DNA of 61,178 nt, from the NCBI GenBank assembly GCA_038212405.1, contig JBBQUN010000002.1, forward strand, positions 1 through 61,178. The letters run 5' to 3'. Source of the stretch: Acidimicrobiales bacterium. Its GTDB lineage: Bacteria > Actinomycetota > Acidimicrobiia > Acidimicrobiales > SZUA-35. Shown in pieces: positions 986 through 25,268 of the stretch. A model generated the notes under the pieces. That model did no database searches and was not told the DNA's origin. It was given only the letters and a program-made list of their open reading frames with translations. Every line of letters starts with the position of its first letter. Position 1 is the stretch's first letter. A program made the position numbers and the translations under genes.

Positions 986-989
986 AAGA

Positions 990-1277
990 TCAGGAATGAG
1001 AAGACCCGTCAATTTCGAGCAAGCCATGCCCCATTAAGCTGCCGGCCAGTTCCAGAACATCTGAGTGGATCTGGTCGAGGGGGGCATCGAACTCGGCCTC
1101 GACGGCGGCGACGGCGGCGTCGACGGTGCCACCCTCCTGCCACACGCCGAACGCACACGCGGCAACAGGGTTGAGGCCGATGTAGGACTCCGACGCCATG
1201 TCGAGCAGCACGGTCTCGTCGGCCACGCGTCGGGCCGTCACCGAGTCTGGAATCCGAAATCGGGTTGTGCCGTCCAC
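990..1277 (-). CDS. PqqD-family RRE protein, copy 1 (candidate lasso B1)
   Basis: This is the C-terminal 95 codons of the 222-aa ORF 990..1658. GTG 1277 is preceded by GAAGGTGGAAC. Sequence RFRIPDSVTARRVADETVLLDMASESYIGLNPVAACAFGVWQEGGTVDAAVAAVEAEFDAPLDQIHSDVLELAGSLMGHGLLEI matches the PqqD pattern. The upstream part of the long ORF overlaps the methyltransferase start region and is rejected. Confidence 0.7.
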   Translation of the reverse strand: MDGTTRFRIPDSVTARRVADETVLLDMASESYIGLNPVAACAFGVWQEGGTVDAAVAAVEAEFDAPLDQIHSDVLELAGSLMGHGLLEIDGSSHS

Positions 1278-1322
1278 GTTCCACCTTCGATCGACGAGTG
1301 CGCCGAGGGTAGTGTGCCACCG

Positions 1323-2498
1323 ATGAGCCAGAGCGAGTTGACCGAGCACGCCTCGTACGTGGCCGACGAAGTGAAGGTCGAGGCCTACCGCCGAGCTCTC
1401 ACCAACCTGGTGAAGCCGGGTGACGTCGTGATCGACCTCGGGTGCGGCAGCGGACTGCTCGGACTCCTTGCGCTCGAAGCTGGGGCCGGGTGCGTCATCG
1501 CCGTCGACTCCGGACCGATCCTCGAGGTGGCCCGAGACACCTTCGCCGCCAACGGCGTGATCGATCGAGTGCGCTTCCACCGAGGCGACTCGTCCACACT
1601 CGGGCTGAGCGAACCGGCCGACGTGGTGGTGTGTGATCAGATCGGTGGGTTCGCCCACGAAGTCGGCCTCACCAAGGTCGTCCGTGATCTGTTCGATCGT
1701 GGGGTCGCGAAGCCCGACGCCATCGTCGTGCCCGGCGGCTTCGAACTGTTCGTTGCCCCGGTGGCGCTGACAGCGGGCGATCCTCTCACGCCGTGGTCCG
1801 ACAACTCGACCGGTTTCGACTTCTCGCCCTTCGGTCGTTCCGCCGCGAACACACCGTTCCGGCTGACGGTCGATGCCTCGTCATTGCTCGGACCCGGGGT
1901 GATGGCCTGGGAACTCGACGCAACCGACACGTCGGCGATCTCGTTCGAGCTCGACCTCCCGATTGCCCGCGGCGGCAGATTCACGGGCCTCGTCGGCTAC
2001 ATGCGGGCCCACCTCGACCGGCACAACGGTGTCGTGCTGACCAACGACCCGAACGACCCCGGGCGATTCCGGAGATGGCACCTCTACCACCCCCTGGCGA
2101 CACCCATCGACGTCGCAGCGGGGGAGCGGGTGCACGCTTCGTTCGTCATCAACCAGCTCGGTCAGATCACCAAGTGGACCGTCGAAGTCGCCGATCACCG
2201 GCAGTCGATGTCCTCGTTCATCGGCGACTTCATCGATCCACTCGTCATGTTCGACCCACCGGCGGAGCGGCTGCTCACACTCAACCGGCCGGGTTTGGCC
2301 CGCCGCACCGCTCTCGATGCAATCGGCGATGGTGTGCTGTTCCCCGAGCTCGTCGAGCGGTTGGCCGTCGAGTTCCCCGATCAGTTCCCTACGCCCGACG
2401 AAGCCCGGAGGTTCGTTCGCGATCTGATCGGGCGCTACTGCGAACCCGGTCAGGACGCAGTGTCGAGCCCGGATGGTCGCAAGGGGAGCAGCGGGTGA
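1323..2498 (+). CDS. Class I SAM-dependent methyltransferase with PRMT-like core and a PqqD-like C-terminal extension
   Basis: ATG 1323 lies inside ORF 1065..2498. Motif I is VIDLGCGSGLLGLLALEAGAGCVIAVD. The motif II / acidic-loop region ADVVVCDQIGGFAHEVG resembles the PRMT double-E loop, and VVPGGFELFVAPV follows as in PRMTs. The last ~75 aa (LTLNRPGLARRTALDAIGDGVLFPELVERLAVEFPDQFPTPDEARRFVRDLIGRY) have the PqqD/RRE pattern. Confidence 0.7.
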   Translation: MSQSELTEHASYVADEVKVEAYRRALTNLVKPGDVVIDLGCGSGLLGLLALEAGAGCVIAVDSGPILEVARDTFAANGVIDRVRFHRGDSSTLGLSEPADVVVCDQIGGFAHEVGLTKVVRDLFDRGVAKPDAIVVPGGFELFVAPVALTAGDPLTPWSDNSTGFDFSPFGRSAANTPFRLTVDASSLLGPGVMAWELDATDTSAISFELDLPIARGGRFTGLVGYMRAHLDRHNGVVLTNDPNDPGRFRRWHLYHPLATPIDVAAGERVHASFVINQLGQITKWTVEVADHRQSMSSFIGDFIDPLVMFDPPAERLLTLNRPGLARRTALDAIGDGVLFPELVERLAVEFPDQFPTPDEARRFVRDLIGRYCEPGQDAVSSPDGRKGSSG

Positions 2499-2920: not shown

Positions 2921-3027
2921 CGGTTCAGTGTGGTTCCCCGGCGATCGGTCTGCACCTTCGTCGAGAGCGCAGCGGTCGAATGACCCACGTCGTTGTGACT
3001 GGGCCGGCGGTGCACCATCATGACGGC

Positions 3028-4731
3028 ATGAGGCGTGTCCTGGTCACCGCATTCCAGGTCACGTTTGCTTCCGCTCGCCGGCTGGTCGTCGTCTCCTTTG
3101 CGCTCGAAGTCGTCTCGGCGCTGGCGCTCGCCGTCCAGCTGTACCTGTTGTCGGTGTTGCTGCGCCGGGTGCTCGACACGGCGACTCCGTTCGATCGACT
3201 CGGTCTCGTGGTCTGGCCACTCTTGGGGGTCGTCGCCACGTTCCTCCTGAGCCGGGTGGCATCGGCCATCGTGCGGGAACTGCGGTGGACGATTTCCGAA
3301 ACGGTCGCCGCCGACATCGAACGGGGTGTCATCGCCAGAGCGGCCGCCGCACCGCTGATCGAGTTCGACGACCCCGAGTTCCACAACCGCATCGAACGAT
3401 GCCGCAACGATGCCGCAGACCAGGTGTGGATGGTCGTCTCGGGCTTCGTTGGGCTCACCCGAGGGCTGCTGTCGTCGATTGCGGTCGCCGTCGTGATGGC
3501 GAGCATCGCCATCGAGCTCCTTTTCATCGGTGCGCTGGCGTTGGTTCCGACCGCGCTCACGCTGTCGCTGGTCTCTCGTCGACGCTACGCCCTCTACACC
3601 GATCTGACGGAGAACCAGCGGGAGCGCGGCTACCTGGTCGATCTCCTCACACAGCGTGCCGGCGCCAAGGAAGCCCGCATCTACCGGACGGCGTGGTCGC
3701 TTCGACCGCGATACGACGCGCTGGTCACGAGCCGCATCGCGCAGCTCCGAGCCGACACACGCCGCCGGGTCGTGCTCATCGCCGCAGGCGACGTGATGGC
3801 CGTCGTCATTCTCACGGTCGCCTTGCTGGTCGCCCTCGGCTTCGTAGCCGACGGTCGCATCAGCACCAGTGACGGTGGTGTCGCCGTGGCTGCGCTGTTC
3901 CAGCTCGTCGGATTGCTCACCGCAGCGGGTTCGGGCGCCGCGTCACTGAGGGGATCCTCCTTCCACGTCGCCGACTACCAGGCCTTCATCGACGGCGCCC
4001 CACCTGCCCCCGAGCTGGAAAGGGGCGGCACATTCGAGACGCTCGAGTTCCGAGACGTGTCGTTCACCTACCCCGGTCGTGATCGGTCGGTCTTCCCGCC
4101 GCTGTCCTTCACACTGCGCCGGGGTGACCTGCTCCTCGTCCGCGGGCCCAACGGGTCTGGCAAGAGCACCCTCGTTGCCATGCTGTGTGGGCTGCTCGAA
4201 CCGAGCGAGGGCATGATCGTGCTCGACGGTGAACCTGTCGACGACCCCACCGAACTCGCACGACGGTGTTCATTGCTGTTTCAGGACTTCATCCGTTTCG
4301 AACTCGAGCTCGGGCACGGCATCGGCATCGAAGACCAGCAACCGGACCCGGCGCGACTGGCGTCCGCGCTCGAACGATCAAGAAGCGAAACGATCGTCGA
4401 CGCCTTTCCCGACGGCGTCCATCAGCGCCTCGGTCGCACCTTCGCCAGCGGCCAGGAGCTCTCGGGTGGGCAGTGGCAGCGGCTCGCGCTGGCCCGAGCC
4501 CTCTACCATCCGACCACCCCGGTGCTCGTTCTCGACGAGCCGACATCCATGCAGGACCGTGACAACACCGAGGTCATCCACGGCCTGATTCGCCGATTGA
4601 GCGGGGAACGGACGGTCGTTCTCGTCTCGCATCGAGACGTTGGCGAACTCCAAGCCGATCTCACCATCGAACTCGGTGTCGACGGTACCCGGGCTCGAAT
4701 GATCGAGAACGATCGGGGCGGGACGGCATGA
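3028..4731 (+). CDS. ABC transporter, fused permease/ATPase (lasso-type exporter), copy 1
   Basis: The N-terminal TM region is followed by Walker A GPNGSGKST, ABC signature LSGGQWQRLALARAL and Walker B VLVLDEPTS. I prefer start ATG 3028 (or 2980). The ORF-track start at 2812 overlaps the divergent B2 gene. Confidence 0.85.
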   Translation: MRRVLVTAFQVTFASARRLVVVSFALEVVSALALAVQLYLLSVLLRRVLDTATPFDRLGLVVWPLLGVVATFLLSRVASAIVRELRWTISETVAADIERGVIARAAAAPLIEFDDPEFHNRIERCRNDAADQVWMVVSGFVGLTRGLLSSIAVAVVMASIAIELLFIGALALVPTALTLSLVSRRRYALYTDLTENQRERGYLVDLLTQRAGAKEARIYRTAWSLRPRYDALVTSRIAQLRADTRRRVVLIAAGDVMAVVILTVALLVALGFVADGRISTSDGGVAVAALFQLVGLLTAAGSGAASLRGSSFHVADYQAFIDGAPPAPELERGGTFETLEFRDVSFTYPGRDRSVFPPLSFTLRRGDLLLVRGPNGSGKSTLVAMLCGLLEPSEGMIVLDGEPVDDPTELARRCSLLFQDFIRFELELGHGIGIEDQQPDPARLASALERSRSETIVDAFPDGVHQRLGRTFASGQELSGGQWQRLALARALYHPTTPVLVLDEPTSMQDRDNTEVIHGLIRRLSGERTVVLVSHRDVGELQADLTIELGVDGTRARMIENDRGGTA

Positions 4732-5509: not shown

Positions 5510-5794
5510 TCATTCGTTGGAGACCACCGCACCGAGATCGACGAGGTCGGCCATCACCTGTTCCATGTCGCTTCGGACAACATCGAGCGTGACATCAAAG
5601 ATCTCGACCAGTTCCTCCGCCAATTGCTCGACCGACACCGGTCGCTCGAGAGACGACCACACGATCGCCATCGGCGCTCCGAAGTGATTGACCTGGTCTT
5701 GCCCCGGTGGAATGAGAGCGACACCCTCGAGGACACGACGCCACAACACGTCGACCCGTCGTTGATACAACGGCGGTGCGTCTCGCTCAGTCAT
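5510..5794 (-). CDS. PqqD-family RRE protein, copy 2
   Basis: Start at MTERDAPPLYQRRVDVLWRRVLEGVALIPPG..VSVEQLAEELVEIFDVTLDVVRSDMEQVMADLVDLGAVV (PqqD pattern). Its ATG overlaps the stop of the upstream nucleotidyltransferase gene by 8 nt. Confidence 0.7.
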   Translation of the reverse strand: MTERDAPPLYQRRVDVLWRRVLEGVALIPPGQDQVNHFGAPMAIVWSSLERPVSVEQLAEELVEIFDVTLDVVRSDMEQVMADLVDLGAVVSNE

Positions 5795-6959
5795 CGAGCT
5801 GACCCCGTAGCTGCCTGACAGCTCGGCGAAGGTGACCTCGCTCGGTCCAACCTCGACTCTCGAGGTACTCCGGGCTGGGCCTGACGAGGGCATGAAGGTA
5901 CCGAGCCCGAGTCCGGACGCCGGGAATCACTGCCAGGGACGCGAACTGCGGCCAGTAGCCGCGTCCCTGGGTCGTGTAGCTACGAAGGAAGAGGACTTGG
6001 CGCCACGGCACCGACACGTCTGCGAGCCGTCGGATCGGATGATCGTCGGCCAGATCGAACGCCGCGATCGTTTCGACGGCGGCACGCCGGATCACGGCCT
6101 GGGCCTGCCAACGCCCACCCATCTCGATCAGGTCGTCCAGATGTTCGGGCCACCGTTCGACCAACAGCATCAAATCGCGCAACGAACCGAGCCGTGGCGG
6201 ATGGTTGCCGAGCGCCGCATCGAAGCATCCATGGATCAGCAGCCCCGTCGGGGTCAGCGTCGGGAGGGCTGTCCCGCCAATCGAGAAAATGTCAGATCCC
6301 AGGAAGAGTTCCTCGGGATCCATCGTCAGACCAAAGGGGCCCCGAGCGAACGTTCGGTGCACATCGACCTCGAGATCATCGACGCGGATCGTCACGTCTT
6401 TCGCGAACTCGAGATCGAAGCCAGTACGAACCTGGGCCTCTGGGCGAACACCGTCGAGATCGGACAGCAGGACCCGGATCGCTTCGTCGAGGTCATCGGA
6501 TCGGATGAGGATGTCGAGATCGACGAAGATCCGGTGTGATGGCTCCCCATACAGAAAATGGGCGAGTGCCACACCTTTCAGCATTCGGAAAGGAATGCTT
6601 GCCGAACCGAGCGCAGCAGCAACACGAAGGGTGGTCCGCTCCAGACGGAGCGAATGCGAGAGCCAGATGAGCAGCCGGTCGGACAAGCGGTCCATCAGGT
6701 CGTCGTCGAGTTCCCATTCCCCCCGCTCGATCGCGTCGCCGAGCGCGCCAAGGGTGCGGCTCCGTTCACACCGGTCGAGCAATTCGTCGAACTCGGCTGC
6801 GGTGAACTTCGCCGGTGGCTCGGGTACACCGCCTTGCAGTGGCATGGCGGCGATTGCGAGGAGCAGGCGATCGAGATCAGACCGCGCTGCGGGCGATCGT
6901 GTTCCTCGGATGGTCGAGGCGCCCATCCGGTCGATCATACTCGTGTCAATTGGGACCAC
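5787..6959 (-). CDS. Nucleotidyltransferase family protein (NTP_transf_5-like), copy 1
   Basis: 390 aa. Signature FRMLKGVALAHFLYGEPSHRIFVDLDILIRSDDLDEAIRVL (KG..a...Y....R...D.D.L), as in the uncharacterised nucleotidyltransferase family found in lasso clusters. Confidence 0.75.
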   Translation of the reverse strand: MVPIDTSMIDRMGASTIRGTRSPAARSDLDRLLLAIAAMPLQGGVPEPPAKFTAAEFDELLDRCERSRTLGALGDAIERGEWELDDDLMDRLSDRLLIWLSHSLRLERTTLRVAAALGSASIPFRMLKGVALAHFLYGEPSHRIFVDLDILIRSDDLDEAIRVLLSDLDGVRPEAQVRTGFDLEFAKDVTIRVDDLEVDVHRTFARGPFGLTMDPEELFLGSDIFSIGGTALPTLTPTGLLIHGCFDAALGNHPPRLGSLRDLMLLVERWPEHLDDLIEMGGRWQAQAVIRRAAVETIAAFDLADDHPIRRLADVSVPWRQVLFLRSYTTQGRGYWPQFASLAVIPGVRTRARYLHALVRPSPEYLESRGWTERGHLRRAVRQLRGQLDD

Positions 6960-7010
6960 TCCTCAGACTCGCCTCGGACCAGCGAGTCCTGCCACCGACA
7001 TCACAACGGC

Positions 7011-7928
7011 TCAGAAGAGTTCGAGCGATCCGAGGCTGAGCGCCAGGTTGTCCAAGCTGGGCGTGTTCGCATTGGCGAGTGTCCGCCATGTGAGTCTCGG
7101 GCCCAGTGGTGGTGCGGGCACGAATCCGTCTCGGAGGCCGAGACCGGCACCGATGGCCACGTCCGCTCGTGCCTCTCGGAGTAGCGAACCGATCGGCAGC
7201 GACGGAGCAAACACATCGCAGATCGAGAGTTCTCGCACCGAACCCCGAGTGCGCAACCGCACCACGGCTTCATCGGTGAACCGGTAGCCAAGAGGAGAGA
7301 AGCCGTAGCGCCAAGCCAGGTAGTCAGCCGAGATGGGCGTATGCCACCCGCTCGGAGGGTTCCACCTGTCGGCCAGGGCGGCAAGGTCAGGCGAGTCGGT
7401 TCCGATGCCCGACGGTTCGCCCCACTTGCCAGCGGCGACTCTGCTTCGAAGCAGTCGTGGCAGGGCGGTGGCGCTGCGAGGCCGTACGGCGATCGGTGCC
7501 CGCCCGACATCGGTCCAGCCCATCTTCAGATAGCCGGGCCGAGACTGATCGTTCGGCGTGTTGAAAACGCCATCGAAGCCCTCGGCCGTCAAGCTCTCCA
7601 CTGCTGCCCTCGTGAGCTTCGTGAATATGCCCTTGCCCTGATGCGAGGGCAGTGTTGCGGTGTCGACGGCACGAACCATCTGGAGCGTTTGAGCTCCACG
7701 TGCGAGCTGCCAACGCATCATCACCCGCACGCCGACGATGTCATCGTGATCGACAGCGACCCAGATCGGCGAGGGCCCGAAGTGATTGTCGCGATGCTTC
7801 CACCGAAAGAAGTCGACGTTGGGGTCGCCCGGCTTCCAGCCGAGAGCAGCGCCACAGCAAGCGACAACTGCCTCGAACTCGTGGTCTTCGGCTTGTCGGA
7901 TCTCAACGTCGTCGGTCACGACCACCAT
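7011..7928 (-). CDS. GNAT-family N-acetyltransferase
   Basis: 305 aa. The acetyl-CoA binding region reads MVRAVDTATLPSHQGKGIFTKLTRAAVESL (Q/RxxGxG/A motif). It lies on the same strand upstream of nucleotidyltransferase 1. Confidence 0.7.
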   Translation of the reverse strand: MVVVTDDVEIRQAEDHEFEAVVACCGAALGWKPGDPNVDFFRWKHRDNHFGPSPIWVAVDHDDIVGVRVMMRWQLARGAQTLQMVRAVDTATLPSHQGKGIFTKLTRAAVESLTAEGFDGVFNTPNDQSRPGYLKMGWTDVGRAPIAVRPRSATALPRLLRSRVAAGKWGEPSGIGTDSPDLAALADRWNPPSGWHTPISADYLAWRYGFSPLGYRFTDEAVVRLRTRGSVRELSICDVFAPSLPIGSLLREARADVAIGAGLGLRDGFVPAPPLGPRLTWRTLANANTPSLDNLALSLGSLELF

Positions 7929-8064
7929 TCTCGCAGCAGACGAGGCAACCCTGCTCGCGTTGAGGTTCTCGTTCCGGTGCGGTTACGAGCAGAGCAAGCC
8001 ATGCCCTCGGTGCCAGCTCACTCGCTACCGGCGAAGCGAACCTCGAGCTGCATGTAGGGGATTC

Positions 8065-8616
8065 CTAGATCGGGGTACAGACCGCTACGTCGTCGTCGTC
8101 GGTACAGATGACGGTGAATCGGAACTGCGAGCTGGCGTTGCCACTCGACTTCAGCACGGTCGGCACGCTGATCGACACCGTGCCACCGGCGGGGTTGATT
8201 ACGGTATTCGTGGCAATCACCGAGCCGGCGCCGTTCCCCCCGGCCCGCTGGTAAATGCGGAGAATACAGCTGGCGTTCACGAAGCCAGTGGTGACGGTGA
8301 TGGTCGAGACCCCGTCTGCGCAGATACCGGAGGTCGTGACACCGGTAAGCCCATTCAAGTTTGCCATCAGCTTGGTGATCGTTGTGGTTTCGCTTGCGCC
8401 GCTGCCACAACTTCCTCCCTGATTGCTGGGCTCCCATGTCGAGTCGAACGACTGCACGGTGCCACTGCACACAGCGGCGTAGGCCGGACTGGTTCCGAGG
8501 ATTCCGACCCCGGGACCTGCCCATGCTGCAACGCCGACACCGGTTGCAACACCGAGTTTGAGTATCGACCGGCGGTCGGTCTGCTTCGCGTTCGATGACT
8601 CTGTCATTTCGTCCAC
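8065..8616 (-). CDS. Tat-signal secreted protein with six Cys, unknown function
   Basis: The N-terminus has the twin-arginine motif TDRRSILKLGVATGVGVAAWA and a likely AYA cleavage site. The mature part of about 135 aa is Thr/Ser/Gly-rich and beta-like, with 6 Cys. I recognise no family motif. Confidence 0.6.
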   Translation of the reverse strand: MDEMTESSNAKQTDRRSILKLGVATGVGVAAWAGPGVGILGTSPAYAAVCSGTVQSFDSTWEPSNQGGSCGSGASETTTITKLMANLNGLTGVTTSGICADGVSTITVTTGFVNASCILRIYQRAGGNGAGSVIATNTVINPAGGTVSISVPTVLKSSGNASSQFRFTVICTDDDDVAVCTPI

Positions 8617-8706
8617 CCCAGATTCTCCCGCCAGGCACAGCCACCTAGAGTGGCAAAGCTACTGCAGGAACAGTGGGGATGCAACGATCGGCTAGCGTCA
8701 AGCACA

Positions 8707-8994
8707 ATGACTCATGAGTATCGGCGAGTTGCCTCGCCATTTCGAGCGATCGACTCGATGGTCCTCGTCTACAGCCCCTCGCAACAAGAGGTCGTGGTTC
8801 TCTCTGAACTCGCCGCAGCAGTGTGGCAGCTGCTCGAAGTACCGCGAAGCAGCGAGCAGCTTGTCGCAGCAATCGACGGCGGCGGCATCGCCGGCCCCAC
8901 TACGCAGAGCGTCGGGTTGGTGCTCAATACCATCAAGTCCCAAGTCGATGGCGCGTTGAGGAACCTTCGGAAGGTCGGACTTGTCCACCCGTGA
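8707..8994 (+). CDS. PqqD-family RRE protein, copy 3
   Basis: ATG 8707 lies inside ORF 8650..8994. Sequence: MTHEYRRVASPFRAIDSMVLVYSPSQQEVVVLSELAAAVWQLLEVPRSSEQLVAAID...ALRNLRKVGLV. Its 3' end overlaps the next gene by 14 nt. Confidence 0.65.
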   Translation: MTHEYRRVASPFRAIDSMVLVYSPSQQEVVVLSELAAAVWQLLEVPRSSEQLVAAIDGGGIAGPTTQSVGLVLNTIKSQVDGALRNLRKVGLVHP

Positions 8995-10060
8995 ACAGCT
9001 CTTCGCCCTGGCGGCTCGAGCGGCGGTAGGTCATGTTGACCTGCCGATCTCGATCGATGACGCTGCGATACCGGCAATCGTCGCGCTGGCAGGAAACGAG
9101 CGGTTGCTGCCGCTCGCCGCTCACGGGTTGCAGCACCTTCCCGACGAGTGGAAGCCCGACGGCTGGGACGAGCTCGTGTTTGCAACAGCTCGTGATGCGG
9201 TCCTCATCGAGGCGAGCATGCTCGAAGCGCACGGCCTCTTGAGCGCCGACGGCATTCGGGTCATGGCGATCAAAGGCATCGCCACTGCGCATCTCGACTA
9301 CGACGACCCTGGTCTGCGCCAGGTCGGCGACGGCGATATCCTCGTCCCGTACCAGCAGCATCTCGATGCCATCGACATCTTGAGCGGTGCCGGATGGATT
9401 GCGCCATCGGCAACGCTGCCGAGTCACCGCGACGCAGTGCACGCCGTTCCGATGCGAGGCCCACTCGGCCGAGACGTCGACGTTCACCAGCATCTCGCGC
9501 CACGAGCGCTCGGTGTGCTTCTGGATCAAGCCGATTTTTTCGCCCACGCAACGACCTTCGAGTTGGGCGACACCCGACTCGGGGCGCCATCGGTGGCCCA
9601 TCGCCTCCTCCACGCCGCCGTGCATTACGAGGCATCGCCGGGTCGTTACAAGCGACTCTCCGGGCTGGTCGATGTCCTCTTGATAGCCCACCGTCACGCG
9701 GTCAACTCAAGCGAACTATGTGCGACCGCCGACGAGTTGGGATTGAGGTTCCTCCTCGAGCGTGCTCTGCGGCGAGCGTCGGCACTCAGCGGGCTCGCCC
9801 TGCCCGCCGAATGGGTCGACGCATTTGCTCGTCCGTGCGCAAAGCCGGATCGGCTCCTCGTCGCCGCTTACAACGGCGAGACACGGCGACCGGTACTTGA
9901 AGAACTGGCGTACATACGACTCGCCGGCGGTCCGGTCGACAAGGTCCGTTACCTCTCGGGCTACTTTCGAACCGATGCCGCCTACCGGGAACGATTCCAG
10001 CGAGGCGGGCTGTGGTCACAAGCTCGCTACCTGGCTTCTCGTGTGCGATCACGGTCTTGA
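8981..10060 (+). CDS. Nucleotidyltransferase family protein (NTP_transf_5-like), copy 2
   Basis: 359 aa with a TTG start. Signature VMAIKGIATAHLDYDDPGLRQVGDGDILVPYQQHLDAIDIL. Confidence 0.75.
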   Translation: MSTREQLFALAARAAVGHVDLPISIDDAAIPAIVALAGNERLLPLAAHGLQHLPDEWKPDGWDELVFATARDAVLIEASMLEAHGLLSADGIRVMAIKGIATAHLDYDDPGLRQVGDGDILVPYQQHLDAIDILSGAGWIAPSATLPSHRDAVHAVPMRGPLGRDVDVHQHLAPRALGVLLDQADFFAHATTFELGDTRLGAPSVAHRLLHAAVHYEASPGRYKRLSGLVDVLLIAHRHAVNSSELCATADELGLRFLLERALRRASALSGLALPAEWVDAFARPCAKPDRLLVAAYNGETRRPVLEELAYIRLAGGPVDKVRYLSGYFRTDAAYRERFQRGGLWSQARYLASRVRSRS

Positions 10061-10717
10061 ACCCGAGTTCGGGCGGAGCGCACCGTAGAGGTCCGGACCG
10101 AACTCGACCAGCGGTTCGAGCAGTGTCGCTGCGTCGATGCGGTGCTGGTGATCGCCATTGCTGATGCGCCTGGCGATGAGCCATATCCGTTGAGCCAGCG
10201 ATGCCGGGGCAGACAAAGGCACACCGGTGAGCAGCACGATCCTCGTCAACTCCAGATCGAGTCGGTGGAGTCTCATGTTCGGGTCGATGTCGAGCACGGT
10301 CGTCGGAAGCAACGCTGCACCCAACGAGGCCAGTCGACGCTCCGACGCCACGAAGTCCGATCCCACGGGCTCGAACCCCACGGCTCGATCACGCCACCGA
10401 ACCGAGCGCATCGCCAGCCTCGCATCAGGAGGTTGCGGCGGATCGGCGAGAACGTGCTCGACCAGCGATGCGAGCGTCATCCCGGCAGCAACGGCGTCTC
10501 GTTCCCTGGCTACCACGCGCCCGCGCCAGTCGAGGATCAAGAGCATCGCTGAGCGGCCGGATCCCGATCGCTGTACCGCGAAGGCGGTGAAGGCATCGTC
10601 ATCGATTCGTGGCGTCGCCTGCCCCTCGAGCCATATGGGTGCAGCCGTGTCGAACACTGCCGGATCCTCCGACACGACCTTGAGCGAGCCATTGGCGAGC
10701 TCGATTCGTTGCTGCAT
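10049..10717 (-). CDS. Hypothetical protein (last gene of the HprK2-PqqD4 operon)
   Basis: 222-aa ORF with good third-position bias and no recognisable motif. It starts 27 nt downstream of PqqD copy 4. Its 3' end overlaps converging nucleotidyltransferase 2 by 12 nt. Confidence 0.45.
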   Translation of the reverse strand: MQQRIELANGSLKVVSEDPAVFDTAAPIWLEGQATPRIDDDAFTAFAVQRSGSGRSAMLLILDWRGRVVARERDAVAAGMTLASLVEHVLADPPQPPDARLAMRSVRWRDRAVGFEPVGSDFVASERRLASLGAALLPTTVLDIDPNMRLHRLDLELTRIVLLTGVPLSAPASLAQRIWLIARRISNGDHQHRIDAATLLEPLVEFGPDLYGALRPNSGSRP

Positions 10718-10744
10718 GGACCCGACCGGGCCCTTCGCCAGCAG

Positions 10745-11095
10745 TCAAGGACTCGGCGGGTCGAAGAACGTCGGGTTGTCGGGCCACGCCCCTTCGATCG
10801 TTTCAGCGTCGGCGAGCAGACCTTCGAGACGGAGGAGTTGCTCCACACGAAGAACCTCGCCGATCGCCACATCTCTCATCACTCCTACCTCGGCGACGAC
10901 ATCGTTGACGAGGTCGCCCATTTGTCCTTCGCCGTCGAAGCAACGGGCGAGGATGGATGCGACAGGATCGAGAAGGACGGGCGCCGGTCGATTCGACGCC
11001 CACGCGATCGACTCGGTGTCGAACGCGCGCACCAGCACGTCCGTTGCCAACGTTGGAACAGCTCGATCCTCGAAGTTCGGTTTTCGGCGGTTCAT
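10745..11095 (-). CDS. PqqD-family RRE protein, copy 4
   Basis: 116 aa. Sequence ..VLLDPVASILARCFDGEGQMGDLVNDVAEVGVMRDVAIGEVLRVEQLLRLEGLL.. fits the PqqD pattern. It has an ATGA start/stop overlap with the upstream kinase gene (11092-11095). Confidence 0.6.
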   Translation of the reverse strand: MNRRKPNFEDRAVPTLATDVLVRAFDTESIAWASNRPAPVLLDPVASILARCFDGEGQMGDLVNDVVAEVGVMRDVAIGEVLRVEQLLRLEGLLADAETIEGAWPDNPTFFDPPSP

Positions 11096-12261
11096 CCTGT
11101 GCGCAATCCCTTCTGCTCGAGTTCGACGAGGAGTCGCTCTGTCCGTTCATCGGCCCCGCCGTCGCAGAACCTGACCCAATCACGTGTATGTTCCGCGTCG
11201 AGCGCAACGAACTGCATCGACGAGTCGATGAGGAGACTCGCCCCATCGATCTCGAGCATCGAGACACCCGCAGTTCGGCCGGTGGTCGAGGCCGCTCGCC
11301 ATTGGAGGGCTCCCGGGCGTCTCGGGCCAGACAGGTGGATCTCGAGCGCTTTCTCCACCGATTCGAGTGCACCTGAGCGAAGACGGATTGCGGTAGCCGC
11401 AGCCAAGAGACGACCGAGTGACAGCACACCGCCGAGGCCGGCGCGCTCAGCGTCCATCACGTGGTCCCGCATCACCTCGACCAACGCATCGATTGGGTGC
11501 GCGATCGACAGCTCCAAAGAATCAACACTGCCGGGCCCCGGTTGGAGTAGCACGATCAGCCCAACCGGGTGGTCATCGGCGCTGACGCGTCCCAGTGCAG
11601 AAGCTCGAACGAGTCGGCCCGCCCCGTGCTGTCGGATGGGAAGACCGTGATCGGCAAGTGTCGGCAGCAGATCGAGGGTGCCGGAGCGAAGGGCGACGGG
11701 TTTCGGGTAGGTCGAGATCTGCGGACTGTCCGAATCGATCGCCACCATCTCGTCCGACAGATAGCACCAGCCGGACTGGAGAAGGTGAGCGGACAGCGTC
11801 GACTTTCCCGTGCGCCGCTTGCCGAGCACCAGAGCGGCGGCGCCGCCACGAGCAAGCGCGGCGGCGTGAAGATGCATTCGCCCCTCATCAGATGCCAAGG
11901 AAAGGCGATTCACCTCTCGCGCAACAGCCCAGAGCGCGTCGGCAATCGAATCGACTTGACGCCAACACCCGTCGAACAAATCGACCATGACGGCCGAGTC
12001 GGCGACGTCGATCGTGGCCGTCGCCAACGGTTGCCGACTCATTGTGTCGGGGTGGCTCACGAGGTCACCGAATACGGCGATCGCCACCTCGACCACCGCT
12101 TGGTCGTTCGACGCAATCTCGAAGACGAACGCGGTCGACGCAAATGCCGGTGTGCGGCTCGGCCGGCTGTCAGGGGGCCTCATGGACCCAGCAATCGCTC
12201 GCAATAGTGTGCGACCATCGATGTCCCTGGCCGGTAGGTCCGAGCCCGGTCGCACGCACAA
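11092..12261 (-). CDS. HPr-kinase-like putative peptide kinase, copy 2 (long form)
   Basis: 389 aa. Motif pattern: LHAAALARGGAAALVLGKRRTGKSTLSAHLLQSGWCYLSDEMVAID (P-loop plus acidic pair). Confidence 0.75.
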   Translation of the reverse strand: MCVRPGSDLPARDIDGRTLLRAIAGSMRPPDSRPSRTPAFASTAFVFEIASNDQAVVEVAIAVFGDLVSHPDTMSRQPLATATIDVADSAVMVDLFDGCWRQVDSIADALWAVAREVNRLSLASDEGRMHLHAAALARGGAAALVLGKRRTGKSTLSAHLLQSGWCYLSDEMVAIDSDSPQISTYPKPVALRSGTLDLLPTLADHGLPIRQHGAGRLVRASALGRVSADDHPVGLIVLLQPGPGSVDSLELSIAHPIDALVEVMRDHVMDAERAGLGGVLSLGRLLAAATAIRLRSGALESVEKALEIHLSGPRRPGALQWRAASTTGRTAGVSMLEIDGASLLIDSSMQFVALDAEHTRDWVRFCDGGADERTERLLVELEQKGLRTG

Positions 12262-12268
12262 TCACCCG

Positions 12269-13092: not shown

Positions 13093-13123
13093 GCGTCAAA
13101 CCCAGAGCGGGAAGTTGGAGGGT

Positions 13124-13279
13124 ATGTCTATGAACTACGAATCACCATCAATCCGTGAGCTCGGCCGAATCGCCGAACTCACGCTTGGCCAAAACGGAAC
13201 ATCACTCGACGGCAATCGGTCGTACACGCAAACGGGTGGCGGCAACAATGAGGACGATCCGACGGACGACACGCCCTGA
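13124..13279 (+). CDS. Lasso-peptide precursor A2 (51 aa)
   Basis: ATG 13124 sits 3 nt after GGAGGG; the track shows a longer TTG-started 71-aa version. Translation: MSMNYESPSIRELGRIAELTL / GQNGTSLDGNRSYTQTGGGNNEDDPTDDTP. The leader fits YxxPxIxxxGxxxxxTx with the same spacing as A1. Core Gly1..Asp8 allows an 8-residue macrolactam. Confidence 0.8.
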   Translation: MSMNYESPSIRELGRIAELTLGQNGTSLDGNRSYTQTGGGNNEDDPTDDTP

Positions 13280-13287: not shown

Positions 13288-14982
13288 TCATGTGGCTCTG
13301 AGCCAACGATCGATCGAGACTAGCGAAGATGCCGGGATCACTGATCCCGGCATCTTCGCTTTTGCCGCATCGACGAGTCGATCCACCGCCTCGCCATCGA
13401 CCTCAGCAAGCTCGCGTACCGGGCCGTGTCGCGCCAACTCCAGCGTCCCCCCGGGCAGAGAAGCCCACGCCGTCGCCGAAAACTCGGCCTTCGTGGTGCG
13501 ATTACGGACGTTCTCGGGCAGCCGAGGACCAAAGGCAACGCGTTGGAGTGAGCGATCGGCGCCACACCTCCTCGGCCAGCCGGGAGGGAGACCGTAGGTC
13601 GCTTCGATGAGATCGATATCGAAGAAGGGGTGCGTGAGTCTGATGTCGAGGGGATCGGTGACGACGGCGAGGTCCTCCAATAGCCGAGTGATCCACCCAT
13701 CTCGAAGCATCTCGGACCGCCGGTCGATCGCGGGGTCACTCGTGTCACGGACCGCCGGACCGATCACCCGGCGCTCGATGCCGAGGTCTCGGCGGTACGC
13801 CGGCTCGAGCAGCGACAAGCCGAACGACGCGCTTCGTCGGCGCCACGCCAGCTCGGCGACCACCGGTCGTACCAGCAGGGGCCAGGTGGCTCGAGGGTGA
13901 GCGGTGATCCACCGGCCAAGCCGAGCGAGTTCCGCACGGTCGCCGGTACGAAGGGCGGAGAGAACTCGAGGGCCGACGAGTTGTGCGCCGAACGCATCGT
14001 CACCCCCCAAACCCGTGACCACCGTGGTGGCGCCCTGTTCTCGAAAACCGGAATGCAGCGATCGAGCCATCAAGCCGTTCGGTGGTGGAGGCGGTACTCG
14101 CCACTCAGCTACGAAAACATCGAGCCACGCCGGGCCGGCGAGAAACGGCGGAGCGTCGAGCAGCGGAAGGCCAAGGTGTCGGGCGACGGCATCGGAGTAC
14201 TTCCGCTCGTCCGCACGTTCGTCGTCGAAGACGATCCGGCCCAGGATCATGGCATCGGTCATCGAACTCGCGGTTGCCGCGACACTCGACGAGTCGAGTC
14301 CGCCGCTCACCTCGAATGCGGTCGTCTCGCCGATCGCCAGCCGCATGCGCACGGCGTCGTCGAGCAGGGAGCGGACTTCCTCGATGGCCTTCTCCCAGGA
14401 GATCGATCGTCGCTGGATCCGGGGTCGACGGGTTGCGCGGACCGATGGGATCGCGCTGCTGGGGACGGTGAGGGCGGTGCCCGGCAAGAGCCGCGTCACA
14501 CCGAGGTGGACGGTTCGGTCCTCGTGGCCGAGCGGGCCGGCCAGCATCTCGGCGATCGTGTGATGATCGGGACGTCGATCCACCCACGAGTTGGCGAGGA
14601 TGTCTCGTTGGAGGGGACTGGCGACCATTCGACCGCTGCCGGCAGCGAAGAAGCAGGGGCGAGCGCCGATCGGGTCTCGGGCAATCGTGATCGTCTCGGC
14701 GCGCCGGTCGGCGACGATCAGAACGAAGTCGCCCTTGATCGACTCGAGCCACGCACGTCGCCCGCAGACGCTCGACACCCAGGTGGCGTCGTCCGACGCA
14801 GCACCCGTCCGATGGATCGAACCGTCGACCAGAACCCATCGCTCGTCGTCCGCCGCAACATGAATCCATTTCGATGTCGAACGCCACGCAATGGTGGCCC
14901 AGCCGAGATCGATCGTTTCGTCGAGCCCGTCGGGAATGCGGTGCGTCCGGTCAGGTCCGACCTGGACGTACCAATCGCTCAT
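13288..14982 (-). CDS. Lasso-peptide cyclase (asparagine synthetase B-like, lasso C)
   Basis: Start MSDWYVQVGPD at 14982, an ATGA overlap with the B2 stop. The PP-loop motif is FEVSGGLDSSSVAA. The N-terminal glutaminase-like domain lacks the N-terminal Cys, as in lasso cyclases. This is the only such gene in the window. Confidence 0.85.
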   Translation of the reverse strand: MSDWYVQVGPDRTHRIPDGLDETIDLGWATIAWRSTSKWIHVAADDERWVLVDGSIHRTGAASDDATWVSSVCGRRAWLESIKGDFVLIVADRRAETITIARDPIGARPCFFAAGSGRMVASPLQRDILANSWVDRRPDHHTIAEMLAGPLGHEDRTVHLGVTRLLPGTALTVPSSAIPSVRATRRPRIQRRSISWEKAIEEVRSLLDDAVRMRLAIGETTAFEVSGGLDSSSVAATASSMTDAMILGRIVFDDERADERKYSDAVARHLGLPLLDAPPFLAGPAWLDVFVAEWRVPPPPPNGLMARSLHSGFREQGATTVVTGLGGDDAFGAQLVGPRVLSALRTGDRAELARLGRWITAHPRATWPLLVRPVVAELAWRRRSASFGLSLLEPAYRRDLGIERRVIGPAVRDTSDPAIDRRSEMLRDGWITRLLEDLAVVTDPLDIRLTHPFFDIDLIEATYGLPPGWPRRCGADRSLQRVAFGPRLPENVRNRTTKAEFSATAWASLPGGTLELARHGPVRELAEVDGEAVDRLVDAAKAKMPGSVIPASSLVSIDRWLRAT

Positions 14983-15440
14983 CGCAGATCCGATGGCAAC
15001 GTACCCAGGTCGGCGCCCGTCGCAATCACCGTGTAGCTGCCAACTGCTTCCGGATCGTCGTTGACCACGGTCGTACCGATCTGGACCCATGCGTGGGCTT
15101 CGACGCTGCCGGAAGTGTTTCGAACTCCGATGACCAGCTCGGCAGCGCTGCCGTGGCGTTCCAATTCGCGCAGTAGCGTCACGGAACGTCGCAGACAGGT
15201 CGGGTGCAGCGGCAGCAACGCGAACGCGCCGTCAATCCGCTCGGCCAGCTCGACGCCCTTGGCGGTCGTGCCGGGCGGCAGGGTCTCGTCGAGCTTCTCG
15301 AGGATCGGGCGCAGGCCTCCGCGCCGTAGCTCGAGCGACGTGCGGCCGGCCCTCCACGCCAACCGGAGCGTCTGCCGGTCGACGAAGGCTGCTGCGATCA
15401 GCGCCCGGAGAGTGGCAGGCAGCCCTGCCTCAGCTCCCAA
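14979..15440 (-). CDS. Lasso-peptide B2 leader peptidase (transglutaminase-like), copy 2
   Basis: 153 aa. Signature PTCLRRSVTLLRELERHG...GSVEAHAWVQIGTTVVND (Cys/His). Confidence 0.85.
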   Translation of the reverse strand: MGAEAGLPATLRALIAAAFVDRQTLRLAWRAGRTSLELRRGGLRPILEKLDETLPPGTTAKGVELAERIDGAFALLPLHPTCLRRSVTLLRELERHGSAAELVIGVRNTSGSVEAHAWVQIGTTVVNDDPEAVGSYTVIATGADLGTLPSDLR

Positions 15441-15690
15441 TCGCGAGTCCTCTCGCCAGTAACTCGGCGACGAGTTTGTCGAAGTCGGCGGCGAGGCGTT
15501 CCGGGTCGACGTCGGGAAAGCGCCCGGTGATGGTCGCGAGCGCTGTTTGACGATCGACGTGGGTCGTTCCGACTTCCCACATGAAGGCCGCAGTCGAGTT
15601 CAGTTCGAGATACATCTCGTTGTTGGAATCGAGTACGACCATCTCGTTGTTCACTCGCCGGGCAAAAACGCCTCTCGGTGCCGAAATCAT
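15430..15690 (-). CDS. PqqD-family RRE protein, copy 5 (lasso B1 of the C/B2 operon)
   Basis: Sequence: MISAPRGVFARRVNNEMVVLDSNNEMYLELNSTAAFMWEVGTTHVDRQTALATITGRFPDVDPERLAADFDKLVAELLARGLAI. ATG 15690 lies 8 nt after GGAGGGA; the maximal ORF reaches 15729. It overlaps the B2 start by 11 nt. Confidence 0.75.
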   Translation of the reverse strand: MISAPRGVFARRVNNEMVVLDSNNEMYLELNSTAAFMWEVGTTHVDRQTALATITGRFPDVDPERLAADFDKLVAELLARGLAIGS

Positions 15691-15768
15691 CGTTGTTCCC
15701 TCCATGTCTCCACCCGTCGGCCGTTTCACCCATCCATCAAGGAGTCACATGCCAGTATTCTCCGCCCT

Positions 15769-17556
15769 GTGACCGAGCACCAGACGACCAGTGTGTTCGA
15801 TGCGCTTCGGATGGCCTTGGGTTTCGTCTGGCGGAGCGCTCGCTGGACGCTGGTCATGCTCGCGCTTGCCCAGGTGCTCGCGGCGCTGGCGCTCCTCATG
15901 TTGCTGCTGTCGGTTCGATCGCTGATCGCCGGGCTCGAGGCCGGTGACCAACTGAGTTCGGTCACCTCGTCGGTCGTCGTCTCGTCGCTTGCGTTCCTCG
16001 TGATCGGTGTGGTGGGTGTCGGCTCACAGTCGCTGCAGCTCCTCATGGCGGAGAAGACGAACCGCATCGTGCAGCATGACATCATGCAGATCGCCGTTGG
16101 CGTGCCCTACTCGAGCTACGAAGATCCGGGCTTCCACGATCTGCTCGAGCGGACGACGCAGCGGACGGGAAACAGCTCCCTCCGACTGGTCGGCGGTGTG
16201 CTGACCATCCTCGAGTCGGTCGCCGGGATGTGTGCCGTTGCCATCGCGCTGGCGCGTACCGTGCCGGCGCTGCTTCCGATTCTGCTCGTGGTTGCGCTGC
16301 CGCTGCTCGTCGCTTCCCGAGTCGGCGCACGCATCAACTACCAGATGGCGCTCGAAGTGACCACCGACGATCGGCTGCGTCGATCGATGTTGCTTGCGCT
16401 CACGAGCAAACAGACGGCGCGGGAGGCCCGGACGCTCGGGTTGGGGGCATCACTCGGCACGCGGTGGGATCGGCTCTGGGATCAGCGCATCGCCCTCGTG
16501 CGATCGTTCGCGCTGCGCCGCATGTTCGTCTTGGCCGCGGCCGCCACGCTGTCGGCCTTGATGACCGGCGGCGTGCTCTTCGTGCTGGTGCGAGCAACGG
16601 CGAACGGGACGATCGGTCTCGCCGACGCCTCGGTGGCGGTGTTGGCGTTCCAGCAACTGCTGCAGCGCACCCGCTCCACCGCTCAGGCGACAGGGAACTT
16701 GCGGGAGTCCGCCCTCTTCCTCAGCGACTTCGAATCCCTCGACCAGTACCGGCGGCCCGCTCTTGACGACGGTCTGGCGCTCCCGACGCCCGAGGTGGTG
16801 TCGTTCGAGGATGTCTCGTTTCGATATCCGGGTGGACGGGGCGATGTGTTGGTCGGGACGAGCTTCGAGCTGCGCAGAGGCGAGATGACGGCGCTGGTGG
16901 GTGCCAGTGGGGCTGGCAAGTCGACCCTCGTCCACCTCTTGGCCGGCCTGTATCAGCCGATGACGGGACGGATCCTGTGGGACGGCGCCGACCTTGCCGG
17001 TGTGGACGATCGTGATCGTTGGCGGTCCACCGCGGTGACGTTCCAGGATTTCGGTCGCTTCGACCTCACCGCCAAGGAGAACGTCGAATTGGGAGACGCC
17101 GCTCGCAACGATGCCGAGGCGCTCCGGCACTCGATGGCGGTCGCCGGGATCAGCGACGTGGTCGAGCGTCTCCCCAGCGGCTTGGACACGTTCCTGAGCC
17201 GACTCTTTCCCGGGGGAACCGAGCTCTCTGTGGGGCAGTGGCAACGGCTGGCCGTGGCGCGAGCGCTGTATCGGCGCGCCGCGCTGTTGATCCTCGACGA
17301 GCCCTCGGCGGCCCTGGATGCCGAGTCCGAGGTCGAGTTGATCGATGCGTTGCGGGCCGAGTGCGACGAGCGAGTCGTGCTCGTCGTCTCTCATCGATTC
17401 AGCACGGTGCGTCGAGCAGACCGCATTCTGGTGCTCGACGCTGGTCGCATCGTGGAAGACGGCAGCCACGATGACTTGATGGGCCTCGACGGTCGCTACG
17501 CCCGACTGTTCCGACTCCAGATGGCCGAACCGCCGGCTGCAGTCGACCCTGGCTGA
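15769..17556 (+). CDS. ABC transporter, fused permease/ATPase (lasso-type exporter), copy 2
   Basis: GTG 15769 is in frame with ORF 15547..17556. TM domain, then Walker A GASGAGKST, signature LSVGQWQRLAVARAL and Walker B LLILDEPSA. Confidence 0.85.
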   Translation: MTEHQTTSVFDALRMALGFVWRSARWTLVMLALAQVLAALALLMLLLSVRSLIAGLEAGDQLSSVTSSVVVSSLAFLVIGVVGVGSQSLQLLMAEKTNRIVQHDIMQIAVGVPYSSYEDPGFHDLLERTTQRTGNSSLRLVGGVLTILESVAGMCAVAIALARTVPALLPILLVVALPLLVASRVGARINYQMALEVTTDDRLRRSMLLALTSKQTAREARTLGLGASLGTRWDRLWDQRIALVRSFALRRMFVLAAAATLSALMTGGVLFVLVRATANGTIGLADASVAVLAFQQLLQRTRSTAQATGNLRESALFLSDFESLDQYRRPALDDGLALPTPEVVSFEDVSFRYPGGRGDVLVGTSFELRRGEMTALVGASGAGKSTLVHLLAGLYQPMTGRILWDGADLAGVDDRDRWRSTAVTFQDFGRFDLTAKENVELGDAARNDAEALRHSMAVAGISDVVERLPSGLDTFLSRLFPGGTELSVGQWQRLAVARALYRRAALLILDEPSAALDAESEVELIDALRAECDERVVLVVSHRFSTVRRADRILVLDAGRIVEDGSHDDLMGLDGRYARLFRLQMAEPPAAVDPG

Positions 17557-21526: not shown

Positions 21527-21531
21527 CGGGG

Positions 21532-25265: not shown

Positions 25266-25268
25266 ACG

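Follow-up and report, generated by a model that had tools for sequence, protein, structure and literature searches.

The closest described counterparts of the system analyzed here are the linear polyphosphorylated peptide (LPP) and paeninodin-type lasso peptide clusters of Bacillota. Our locus is a variant of this LPP/phospho-lasso theme, in which PqqD-like proteins with the fold of the RiPP recognition element (RRE; RiPP, peptide synthesized ribosomally and modified post-translationally) are encoded beside HprK-like kinases and PF14907 nucleotidyltransferases (NTases) in a 61,178-nucleotide stretch of DNA from an Acidimicrobiales bacterium (contig JBBQUN010000002.1, positions 1 to 61,178; henceforth the window). 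In the LPP clusters a single discrete RRE accompanies a precursor, an HprK kinase, a SipW-like peptidase, an MsbA-like exporter and an NTP transferase; the clusters are located in capsule loci, often adjoining lasso clusters, where two RREs discriminate their own leaders, and their NTase, LppN, was inactive, an unknown partner having been suggested as needed (Popov et al., Nat Commun 2026; PMC13381572). HprK-like kinases phosphorylate both lasso and LPP precursors (PMC8498205; PMC13381572), and in pseudomycoidin the NTase adds a hexose to the phosphate (PMC8498205); the kinase/NTase tailoring of paeninodin and pseudomycoidin was reported by Zhu et al. 2016 and Zyubko et al. 2019 and is reviewed in PMC8498205. 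The LPP and paeninodin families were described as restricted to Bacillota (PMC13381572).

The window shares with the LPP clusters an HprK-like kinase, a discrete PqqD-type RRE, a PF14907-type NTP transferase, an MsbA-like exporter and a precursor with a YxxPx[V/L] leader, as well as a location in a polysaccharide locus beside a lasso biosynthetic gene cluster (BGC) and the presence of several RREs per locus. In both, the RRE gene comes after the kinase gene, and the profile of the kinase-linked (K-type) RREs of our locus matches LppB (PDB: 9x8z) with E = 1e-7. However, the lineage is Actinomycetota instead of Bacillota, the NTase is accompanied by a separate second type of RRE where LPP clusters have a single one, up to three kinase and NTase paralogs are present, the relatives of the locus are without lasso genes, and the candidate substrate in these relatives is a twin-arginine translocation (Tat)-signal protein of ~170-225 aa. 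A further difference is that a scan of ~30 window proteins encoded between 0 and 30 kb revealed no SipW-type or S24/S26 peptidase; four products (4762-5505, 10049-10717, 12269-12871 and 18413-19096) had no Pfam match, and the first, second and fourth had none in NCBIfam either.

With the phosphorylated lasso systems typified by paeninodin and pseudomycoidin, the locus shares the lasso A/B1/B2/C/D set accompanied by an HprK-like kinase and a nucleotidyltransferase, and fusions of NTase with B2 occur in both. The kinases of those systems, however, target a C-terminal Ser and are described without an RRE of their own, whereas in our locus A1 ends in Pro and A2 in Ala, and the extra enzymes bring their own RREs. 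A pairing of HprK-like with PqqD-like proteins is also implied by the model names of the HPr-rel-A system (TIGR04352, HprK-related kinase A, and TIGR04353, PqqD family peptide chaperone) and of SynChlorMet (ScmC and ScmD), but these names imply no NTase-RRE pairing, and the window proteins score far below the HPr-rel-A equivalog cut-offs (HprK2 54.0, HprK1 34.5 and HprK3 34.8 against 200 bits; PqqD3 14.8 against 35, with no match for the other PqqDs). We found no characterization of either system in the literature. The split lasso B1/B2 arrangement offers another parallel, since there too the RRE has a gene to itself, which overlaps that of the enzyme it serves, and the models of PqqD3 and PqqD4 match the B1 fold; the partners here are nevertheless a kinase and a nucleotidyltransferase and not a leader peptidase. 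Neither an RRE dedicated to an NTase nor a PqqD-NTase fusion was found described in the literature.

An RRE is commonly regarded as the single leader-binding adaptor of a RiPP pathway, at the service of its primary enzyme. In the present system each of the two secondary enzymes, the kinase and the nucleotidyltransferase, has an RRE subfamily of its own, as a split gene or in fused form.

Conserved pairing of RREs with kinases and nucleotidyltransferases

A window-wide scan with hidden Markov models (HMMs) recovered five PqqD, three HprK-like and three NTase proteins (Table 1). The original prediction, that each tailoring enzyme of a lasso cluster is coupled to a PqqD/RRE protein of its own, is right in its core and wrong in its scope ("each") and framing (lasso tailoring). 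What the locus carries is a modular cassette of kinase, NTase and RRE that is conserved in polysaccharide loci of actinobacteria and is here duplicated, with a lasso cluster and another leader peptide alongside, and the existence of enzyme-specific RRE subfamilies for the window kinase and NTase subfamilies is supported for two kinase-RRE and two RRE-NTase pairs.

Related loci were collected from one genome per species with a narrow NTase2-based alignment, which returned nine loci, all of them from metagenome-assembled genomes of Acidimicrobiia, Ilumatobacteraceae, Nocardioidaceae or other Actinomycetota; a second narrow alignment was used to search for loci encoding the Tat-signal protein. 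NTase, HprK-like and PqqD-like open reading frames (ORFs) are present in all nine NTase2-based loci, and the kinase-RRE and RRE-NTase pairs recur in about 15 related loci. In the first of the two modules the HprK gene is followed by a PqqD gene, usually with a 4-nt overlap (L001, L004, L006, L008, L010, L028 and L029), and often next by a gene for a protein of 220-275 aa that we term X. In the second module a PqqD gene lies directly upstream of the NTase gene, the two abutting or overlapping by 4-17 nt (L001, L002, L004, L006, L008, L010 and L020), and a PqqD gene overlapped the NTase start in all four arbitrarily sampled members of the NTase subfamily. The modules combine in several ways: L006 has the order HprK, PqqD, PqqD, NTase; L008 reads PglF-like, BY-kinase-like, UDP-glucose dehydrogenase, PqqD, NTase, GNAT, a 455-aa protein, DegT, HprK, PqqD, X; and L028 and L029 have the same order as the window, namely HprK, PqqD, X and a convergent NTase. 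Adjacency is kept even where the order is flipped, NTase1 preceding PqqD2 in the window and PqqD preceding NTase in its closest relatives.

Grouping of the PqqD proteins by best matches yields four groups, Ka and Kb among the K-type RREs and Na and Nb among the NTase-linked (N-type) ones. PqqD4 falls into Ka with its counterparts from L001 and L004, the same loci with which HprK2 groups, and Kb contains those of L006, L008, L010 and others. PqqD2 belongs to Na along with L006, L008 and L010, as does NTase1 among the enzymes, and PqqD3 to Nb along with L001, L002 and L004, as does NTase2. At the level of best-match grouping, the PqqD subfamily clusters are congruent with the enzyme clusters. 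The two components are also found joined in single polypeptides, with PqqD fused to NTP_transf_5 in three proteins (P0090, P0125 and P0167) and to a ScmC/HprK-like domain in a fourth (P0017), all annotated as "hypothetical protein" in the source records; P0167 is encoded among PglF-like and BY-kinase-like polysaccharide genes, as are the split genes. Other fusions of PF14907 join it to a P-loop domain (possibly HprK-like), to Transglut_core3 (lasso B2), to GT4 and to a PAP2 domain (P0059, P0107, P0119 and P0041), P0107 being the NTase-B2 fusion.

In the relatives the cassettes are co-directional inside polysaccharide operons with PglF-like, UDP-glucose dehydrogenase, DegT, BY-kinase-like and glycosyltransferase (GT) genes, and no lasso C or B2 homolog lies within about 10 kb in any of the nine NTase2-based loci. 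The recurrence of the modules in lasso-free actinobacterial polysaccharide loci implies that they are not simply lasso-tailoring accessories, and the view of these enzymes as tailoring components of the lasso cluster is not supported.

The NTases belong to a very large family (48,893 representatives at E <= 1e-3), exceed the PF14907 cut-off of 31.2 bits (Table 1) and retain intact Pol-beta-type catalytic motifs, with K98-G99, D117xD119 and D167xH169 invariant in the alignment. NTase2 has few close relatives (10 matches, the best at 41% identity) and is 36-41% identical to P0002/P0003. The window kinases are, as judged from profile scores, distant HprK-like/ScmC-family P-loop proteins; homologs of HprK2 carry PF27840 ("ScmC"), HprK2 itself is 31-32% identical to the L001 and L004 kinases, and HprK1 is without the N-terminal region that HprK2 has. 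The GNAT protein is a conserved neighbor, being 51% identical to that of L001 and coming after the NTase in L008.

Most cassettes have X behind the K-type PqqD, and its copies are very divergent, with weak pairwise similarity; X-like proteins of similar size and position behind the K-type PqqD are found in L001, L004, L008, L010, L028 and L029. The C-terminus of HprK2, which by eye resembled a partial PqqD, was rejected as such (PqqD HMM ~1 bit). Weak PqqD-HMM matches (18-22 bits) in the C-terminal ~90 residues were seen only in the kinases of L020, L028 and L029 and hint at a built-in RRE-like domain.

Fold and leader-contact residues of the PqqD-like proteins

The assignment to PF05402 (gathering threshold 23.4 bits) holds for PqqD1, B1, PqqD2 and PqqD3, and fails for PqqD4 (Table 1). 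Profile and structural comparisons nevertheless predict all five to be genuine RRE-fold proteins. The profile of the K-type family that includes PqqD4 matches TbiB1 (7e-8) and LppB (9x8z; 1e-7) in the PDB, and also PqqD and TfuB1, over the full length of these proteins. The AlphaFold2 (AF2) model of PqqD4 (pLDDT 77) superimposes on TbiB1 with a TM-score of 0.84-0.86 and a root-mean-square deviation of 1.7-1.8 A in Foldseek, and that of PqqD3 (pLDDT 85) has TbiB1 (TM 0.75-0.80), PqqD and TfuB1 as its best Foldseek matches. Both models display the beta3-alpha3 winged-helix layout of three strands and three helices, and further Foldseek matches are to the RRE domains of TfuB1, PqqD, ThcOx, TigE and CteB.

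In B1 and PqqD1 all the positions that contact the leader, as defined by the LppB-leader crystal structure (PMC13381572), are canonical; PqqD4 and PqqD2 agree in part, and PqqD3 agrees least. The Asp anchoring the leader Tyr (LppB D70) is retained in B1, PqqD1 and PqqD2, and is replaced by Glu in PqqD4 and Gln in PqqD3. The nearest paralog of PqqD1 is B1.

Candidate substrates

Both A1 and A2 fit the lasso precursor pattern, which we defined by a YxxPxL leader, Thr at -2, G, S or A at core position 1 and D or E at positions 7-9, and both have the YxxPx[L/I]xxLG...T leader that typifies lasso and LPP precursors. Direct reading gives ...YESPSIRELGRIAELT-L/GQNGTSLD for A1 and ...YQSPKLEVLGSVSALT-A/SGSANQME for A2, the slash marking the putative cleavage site. 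A2, with the leader YQSPKLEVLG...T, lies directly upstream of HprK1 and is preceded by an AAGGTGG ribosome-binding site; the 16 residues from its Tyr to its Thr equal the spacing in A1 and in LppA (Y-16...T-1; PMC13381572). It could be either a lasso peptide or an LPP-like linear peptide. A regular-expression search of the related loci recovered no YxxPxL-type small ORF beyond A1 and A2, and gave no evidence of lasso-type precursors travelling with the cassette.

A Cys-rich Tat-signal protein of ~170-225 aa usually adjoins the kinase/RRE/NTase cassette, with counterparts in at least eight other loci (L001, L004, L005, L010, L020, L025, L028 and L029). Only its N-terminal ~45 aa are conserved, with the pattern RR...A[W/F]xx[P/A/G]x[I/V]xxLG..AYA, which resembles lasso and LPP leaders, and RR, AW, P and A are invariant in the N-terminal alignment. 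In several of these proteins the segment reads [W/F]xxPx[I/V]xxLG; this leader-like pattern is rare, with only eight matches in 576,048 six-frame codons, five of which are A1, A2 and three Tat-signal proteins. WxxP as a strict RRE motif of the family was weakened as a candidate by metagenomic homologs in which A or G replaces the Pro, so that the likeness to an RRE-binding motif is suggestive only. The Tat-signal family may be a substrate of the cassette. Neither X nor the Tat-signal protein of the window has a match in Pfam or NCBIfam, and the L025 member of the latter family carries Pfam DUF7467.

Proposed mechanism and alternatives

We consider it probable, and the best explanation overall, that the PqqD-like protein of each module acts as the substrate-recruiting subunit of the neighboring enzyme. 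The RRE would recruit the substrate for the adjacent kinase or NTase much as B1 serves B2, binding an N-terminal segment of the [Y/W/F]xxPx[L/I/V] type in a peptide or small protein and presenting this segment to its partner. If the chemistry resembles that of paeninodin, pseudomycoidin and LPP, a Ser would be phosphorylated by the kinase, and this phosphate would next receive from the NTase a nucleotide-activated group, in all likelihood a sugar. We infer the peptide binding of the K- and N-type RREs, this chemistry, and the substrate of each module (A1, A2 or the Tat-signal protein) from such parallels.

Several observations weigh against recruitment by a dedicated RRE. HprK3 and NTase3 have no adjacent PqqD, and an NTase clade, Nc, is likewise without an immediately adjacent one (in L011 HprK leads directly into NTase). 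The N-type profiles have RRE structures as their first matches, but with poor E-values (Nb, 0.007; Na, 0.07), and the N-type RREs deviate at contact sites, N33 being G or S (G in PqqD2), Y60 being V in PqqD3 and F74 being V or A. The AF2 models depend in part on the homology that they are meant to support, as their alignments consisted of the five window paralogs only, and the congruent clustering could partly reflect inheritance of whole cassettes, because loci with Ka carry Nb and those with Kb carry Na. Finally, A1 ends in ...DDTP and A2 in ...FNMA, and neither has the C-terminal Ser that is the site of paeninodin-type kinases. The claim that each tailoring enzyme has a dedicated RRE is supported for the two kinase-RRE and two RRE-NTase pairs, and does not extend to HprK3, NTase3, the methyltransferase or the GNAT protein, which are without a PqqD.

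The alternative that survives best, although we regard it as unlikely, is that there is one RRE per pathway and not per enzyme, so that several co-located RiPP pathways would each use an RRE to discriminate a cognate leader and the adjacent enzyme would be incidental. The two RREs of adjacent LPP and lasso BGCs do each bind their own leader only, and the order lppA-K-B places the pathway RRE directly after the kinase (PMC13381572), like PqqD4 after HprK2. The window, moreover, contains at least two leader types (A1 and A2) and the Tat-signal protein, and the B1-like PqqD1 lies beside A2. On the other hand, minimal cassettes such as that of L006 hold both K- and N-type RREs, RREs are found fused to the enzymes themselves, and the K and N types are distinct families that track enzyme subfamilies.

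Quite improbable, in our view, is a cassette with no relation to RiPPs, in which the kinases and NTases would have the PqqD-like proteins as structural or regulatory subunits and would act on polysaccharide intermediates or assembly proteins (e.g. BY-kinase/Wzz), and the lasso cluster would be a mere neighbor. Such a cassette would be at home in the lasso-free (0/9), co-directional polysaccharide operons of the relatives and in keeping with the GT4 and PAP2 fusions of the NTase family and with the failure of the regular-expression search to find YxxP-type small ORFs in the relatives. It is harder to reconcile with an RRE fold tied so far to peptide binding, with full-length matches of the K-type profile to the leader-binding LppB and TbiB1, with the YxxPxL peptide directly upstream of HprK1, with the NTase-B2 fusion (P0107), and with the demonstrated peptide substrates of HprK-like and PF14907 enzymes (PMC8498205; PMC13381572).

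Substrate recruitment by enzyme-specific RREs allows a more far-reaching version, which we advance tentatively and hold to be doubtful. The cassette of HprK, RRE and X plus RRE and NTase would be a self-contained RRE-guided phospho-glycosylation system, belonging to polysaccharide loci of actinobacteria, whose native substrate is the Tat-signal protein (8065-8616) and not a classical RiPP precursor, the two RREs passing one leader-bearing protein to successive enzymes before its export; the lasso cluster would either have recruited the cassette or have landed beside it.

Enzyme-specific RREs bear on the described systems in several ways. The NTase-linked RRE specifically suggests what kind of protein the inactive LppN may be missing as its partner, and the HprK/NTase/RRE theme of peptide modification is extended from Bacillota to Actinomycetota. 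The adjacency or fusion of PF05402 with PF14907 or PF27840 provides a handle for genome mining, and the links to polysaccharide loci and Tat-signal proteins suggest that the peptide or protein is modified in connection with biogenesis of the cell envelope.

Gene overlaps and start codons

Every junction was checked by direct reading of the sequence, and all the overlaps that had been described were recovered. NTase1 and PqqD2 overlap by 8 nt at 5787-5794 (GATGACTGA), the NTase1 gene ending in GAT GAC TGA with the PqqD2 ATG embedded therein; PqqD3 and NTase2 overlap by 14 nt (TTG at 8981, TGA at 8992-8994), with a GGAAGG Shine-Dalgarno sequence at 8968-8973 before the TTG; HprK2 and PqqD4 share ATGA at 11092-11095; and B1 and B2 overlap by 11 nt at 15430-15440. 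The converging stops of HprK1 and PqqD1 are 4 nt apart (gap 986-989). The annotated start codons are credible because the N-termini of homologs match: TTG 8981 is the sole start in its ORF upstream of the conserved NTase N-terminus in the alignment, and PqqD2 aligns from Met1 ("MTERD..YQRR..VLWRR") with its L008 homolog ("MTELD..YRRR..VLWRE"). The likely start of PqqD1 is GTG 1277, preceded by GAAGGTGG.

The overlaps are robust, yet they are not specific to RRE-enzyme pairs; they show tight co-transcription and allow coupling. By our gene calls the window has 31 same-strand neighbor pairs, of which 11 overlap, among them NTase3/Bac_transf and the HTTM gene with its 227-aa neighbor, and in related operons 4-nt overlaps occur at nearly all junctions, including NTase/GNAT and DegT/HprK. 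Overlap is seen in all three PqqD-enzyme pairs as against 8 of the 28 others (one-sided hypergeometric p ~0.04 by our own arithmetic). Translational coupling as a trait peculiar to the RRE-enzyme pairs is not upheld, and for HprK1 and PqqD1, which converge from opposite strands, it is impossible. Similar convergent HprK and PqqD genes, with stops from a few to a few hundred nt apart, are found in L028 (12154-12467) and L007 (18422-19220) as in the window (985-990), and this recurrence in several loci makes the HprK1/PqqD1 layout a conserved configuration as well. The evidence for partnership lies in conservation, congruent clustering and fusions and not in the overlaps, which reflect tight operon packing and may help equimolar synthesis of enzyme and RRE. 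Ordinary operon compaction in a high-GC genome, by which overlaps and adjacency would mean nothing beyond co-transcription, accommodates the frequent overlaps in the window (11/31) and in related operons but fails to explain the cross-genome conservation of the pairs, the congruent subfamilies and the fusions, and is highly improbable.

The intergenic region 8617-8706, described as lying between two divergent PqqD-NTase modules, does exist, but it separates PqqD3 from the gene of the Tat-signal protein (8065-8616), and NTase1/PqqD2 is not directly adjacent to it; the minus-strand string runs in the order sec (the Tat-signal gene), GNAT, NTase1, PqqD2. A scan of 8400-9000 for sigma-70 promoters and terminators found nothing.

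Organization of the locus

The window (GC content about 64%) carries a composite locus on the edge of a polysaccharide gene cluster of the bacillosamine type, in which four components can be recognized. The first, at 13.1-17.6 kb, is a canonical lasso set of A1, C, B2, B1 and one ABC exporter, in which B2 scores 68.9 bits with NF033537 (cut-off 33), and the cyclase, despite its PF00733 match, lies below the cut-offs of the lasso models NF033535 (91 against 525) and NF033561 (70 against 300). The second comprises A2, with its YxxPxL leader, adjoining HprK1, the B1-like RRE PqqD1 and the genes of a methyltransferase and of another ABC exporter. The third is the cassette, present in two paralogous copies, with two-gene modules of an HprK-like kinase and K-type RRE (with or without X) and of an N-type RRE and PF14907 NTase, and the fourth is HprK3/NTase3, a kinase/NTase pair without an RRE.

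Table 1. Positions of genes in the window and of their counterparts in related loci
Feature	Locus	Position	Strand	Remarks
A2, second precursor-like ORF	window	149..319	+	MRGLESKSDEVSKRTYQSPKLEVLGSVSALTASGSANQMENDMSNPPRVGPTFNMA; YxxPxLxxLG leader then Thr; tblastn with A1
HprK1, short HprK-like P-loop protein, 203 aa	window	374..985	+	PF07475 21.1 bits (below cut-off); TIGR04352 34.5 bits
PqqD1, lasso-B1-like RRE	window	990..1277	-	PF05402 45.7 bits; convergent with HprK1
S-adenosylmethionine (SAM) methyltransferase (PrmA/PRMT-like)	window	1320..2498	+	PF06325 41.4 bits; PF13649
MsbA-like ABC exporter 1	window	2980..4731	+	PF00005; TIGR02203 175 bits
Membrane protein	window	4762-5505		no Pfam/NCBIfam match
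PqqD2, N-type (Na) RRE	window	5510..5794	-	PF05402 29.7 bits; downstream of NTase1
NTase1 (PF14907)	window	5787..6959	-	88 bits; nearest are L008/L010/L006 NTases
GNAT acetyltransferase	window	7011..7928	-	PF13527 51 bits; conserved cassette neighbor
Tat-signal Cys-rich protein (sec), candidate substrate	window	8065..8616	-	divergent from PqqD3; homologs near cassette elsewhere
PqqD3, N-type (Nb) RRE	window	8707..8994	+	PF05402 24.5 bits
NTase2 (PF14907)	window	8981..10060	+	107.9 bits
X, third gene of kinase module	window	10049..10717	-	no Pfam/NCBIfam match
PqqD4, K-type (Ka) RRE	window	10745..11095	-	PF05402 17.0 bits (below cut-off)
HprK2, HprK-like/ScmC-family P-loop kinase	window	11092..12261	-	TIGR04352 54 bits (cut-off 200)
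Lasso precursor A1	window	13124..13279	+	MSMNYESPSIRELGRIAELTLGQNGTSLDGNRSYTQTGGGNNEDDPTDDTP; YxxPxI leader, Thr at -2, possible G1...D8 ring
Lasso cyclase C (Asn-synthase-like)	window	13288..15090	-	PF00733 86.5 bits
Lasso leader peptidase B2	window	14979..15440	-	PF13471 77 bits; NF033537 68.9 bits
Lasso B1 (RRE)	window	15430..15729	-	PF05402 45.0 bits
MsbA-like ABC exporter 2	window	15769..17556	+	PF00005; TIGR02203 248 bits
HprK3, HprK-like kinase without adjacent PqqD	window	18939..19802	-	TIGR04352 34.8 bits
NTase3 (PF14907) without adjacent PqqD	window	19890..20891	-	74.4 bits; 4-nt overlap with Bac_transf
X	L001	4436-5188
X	L004	8078-8827
X	L008	15860-16651
X	L010	6983-7678
X	L009	8912-9739
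X	L028	10320-11024
Tat-signal protein	L001	3794-4411
Tat-signal protein	L004	8836-9510
Tat-signal protein	L005	11111-11692
Tat-signal protein	L010	4776-5306
Tat-signal protein	L020	8001-8477
Tat-signal protein	L025	1925-2500
Tat-signal protein	L028	8272-8778
RRE-like kinase C-terminus	L020	10331-10597
RRE-like kinase C-terminus	L028	12473-12733
RRE-like kinase C-terminus	L029	7909-8166

Between HprK2 and A1 lies a gap of 862 nt (12262-13123). It contains a single long ORF (12269-12871; 200 aa on the minus strand), which had no match in a scan against Pfam alone and has middling codon statistics. A further pair, placed between ABC exporter 2 and HprK3 (17496-19096, minus strand), consists of an HTTM/SdpB-like membrane protein (PF05090, TIGR04033) and a 227-aa protein (18413-19096) with no family match in Pfam or NCBIfam, their genes overlapping by 4 nt. 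SdpB-type proteins are linked to the maturation of the SdpC peptide toxin in Bacillus.

The polysaccharide locus of the bacillosamine type extends over 19890-30401, and NTase3 there shares 4 nt with the gene of Bac_transf (20888-21808), the initiating sugar transferase. Its genes (19.9-30.4 kb) encode Bac_transf, a PglF-like dehydratase, a DegT aminotransferase, a PglD-like acetyltransferase, a GT4 glycosyltransferase, a heparinase II/III-like protein and a Wzx-like flippase, and the GC content falls to 0.55 at 28-34 kb.

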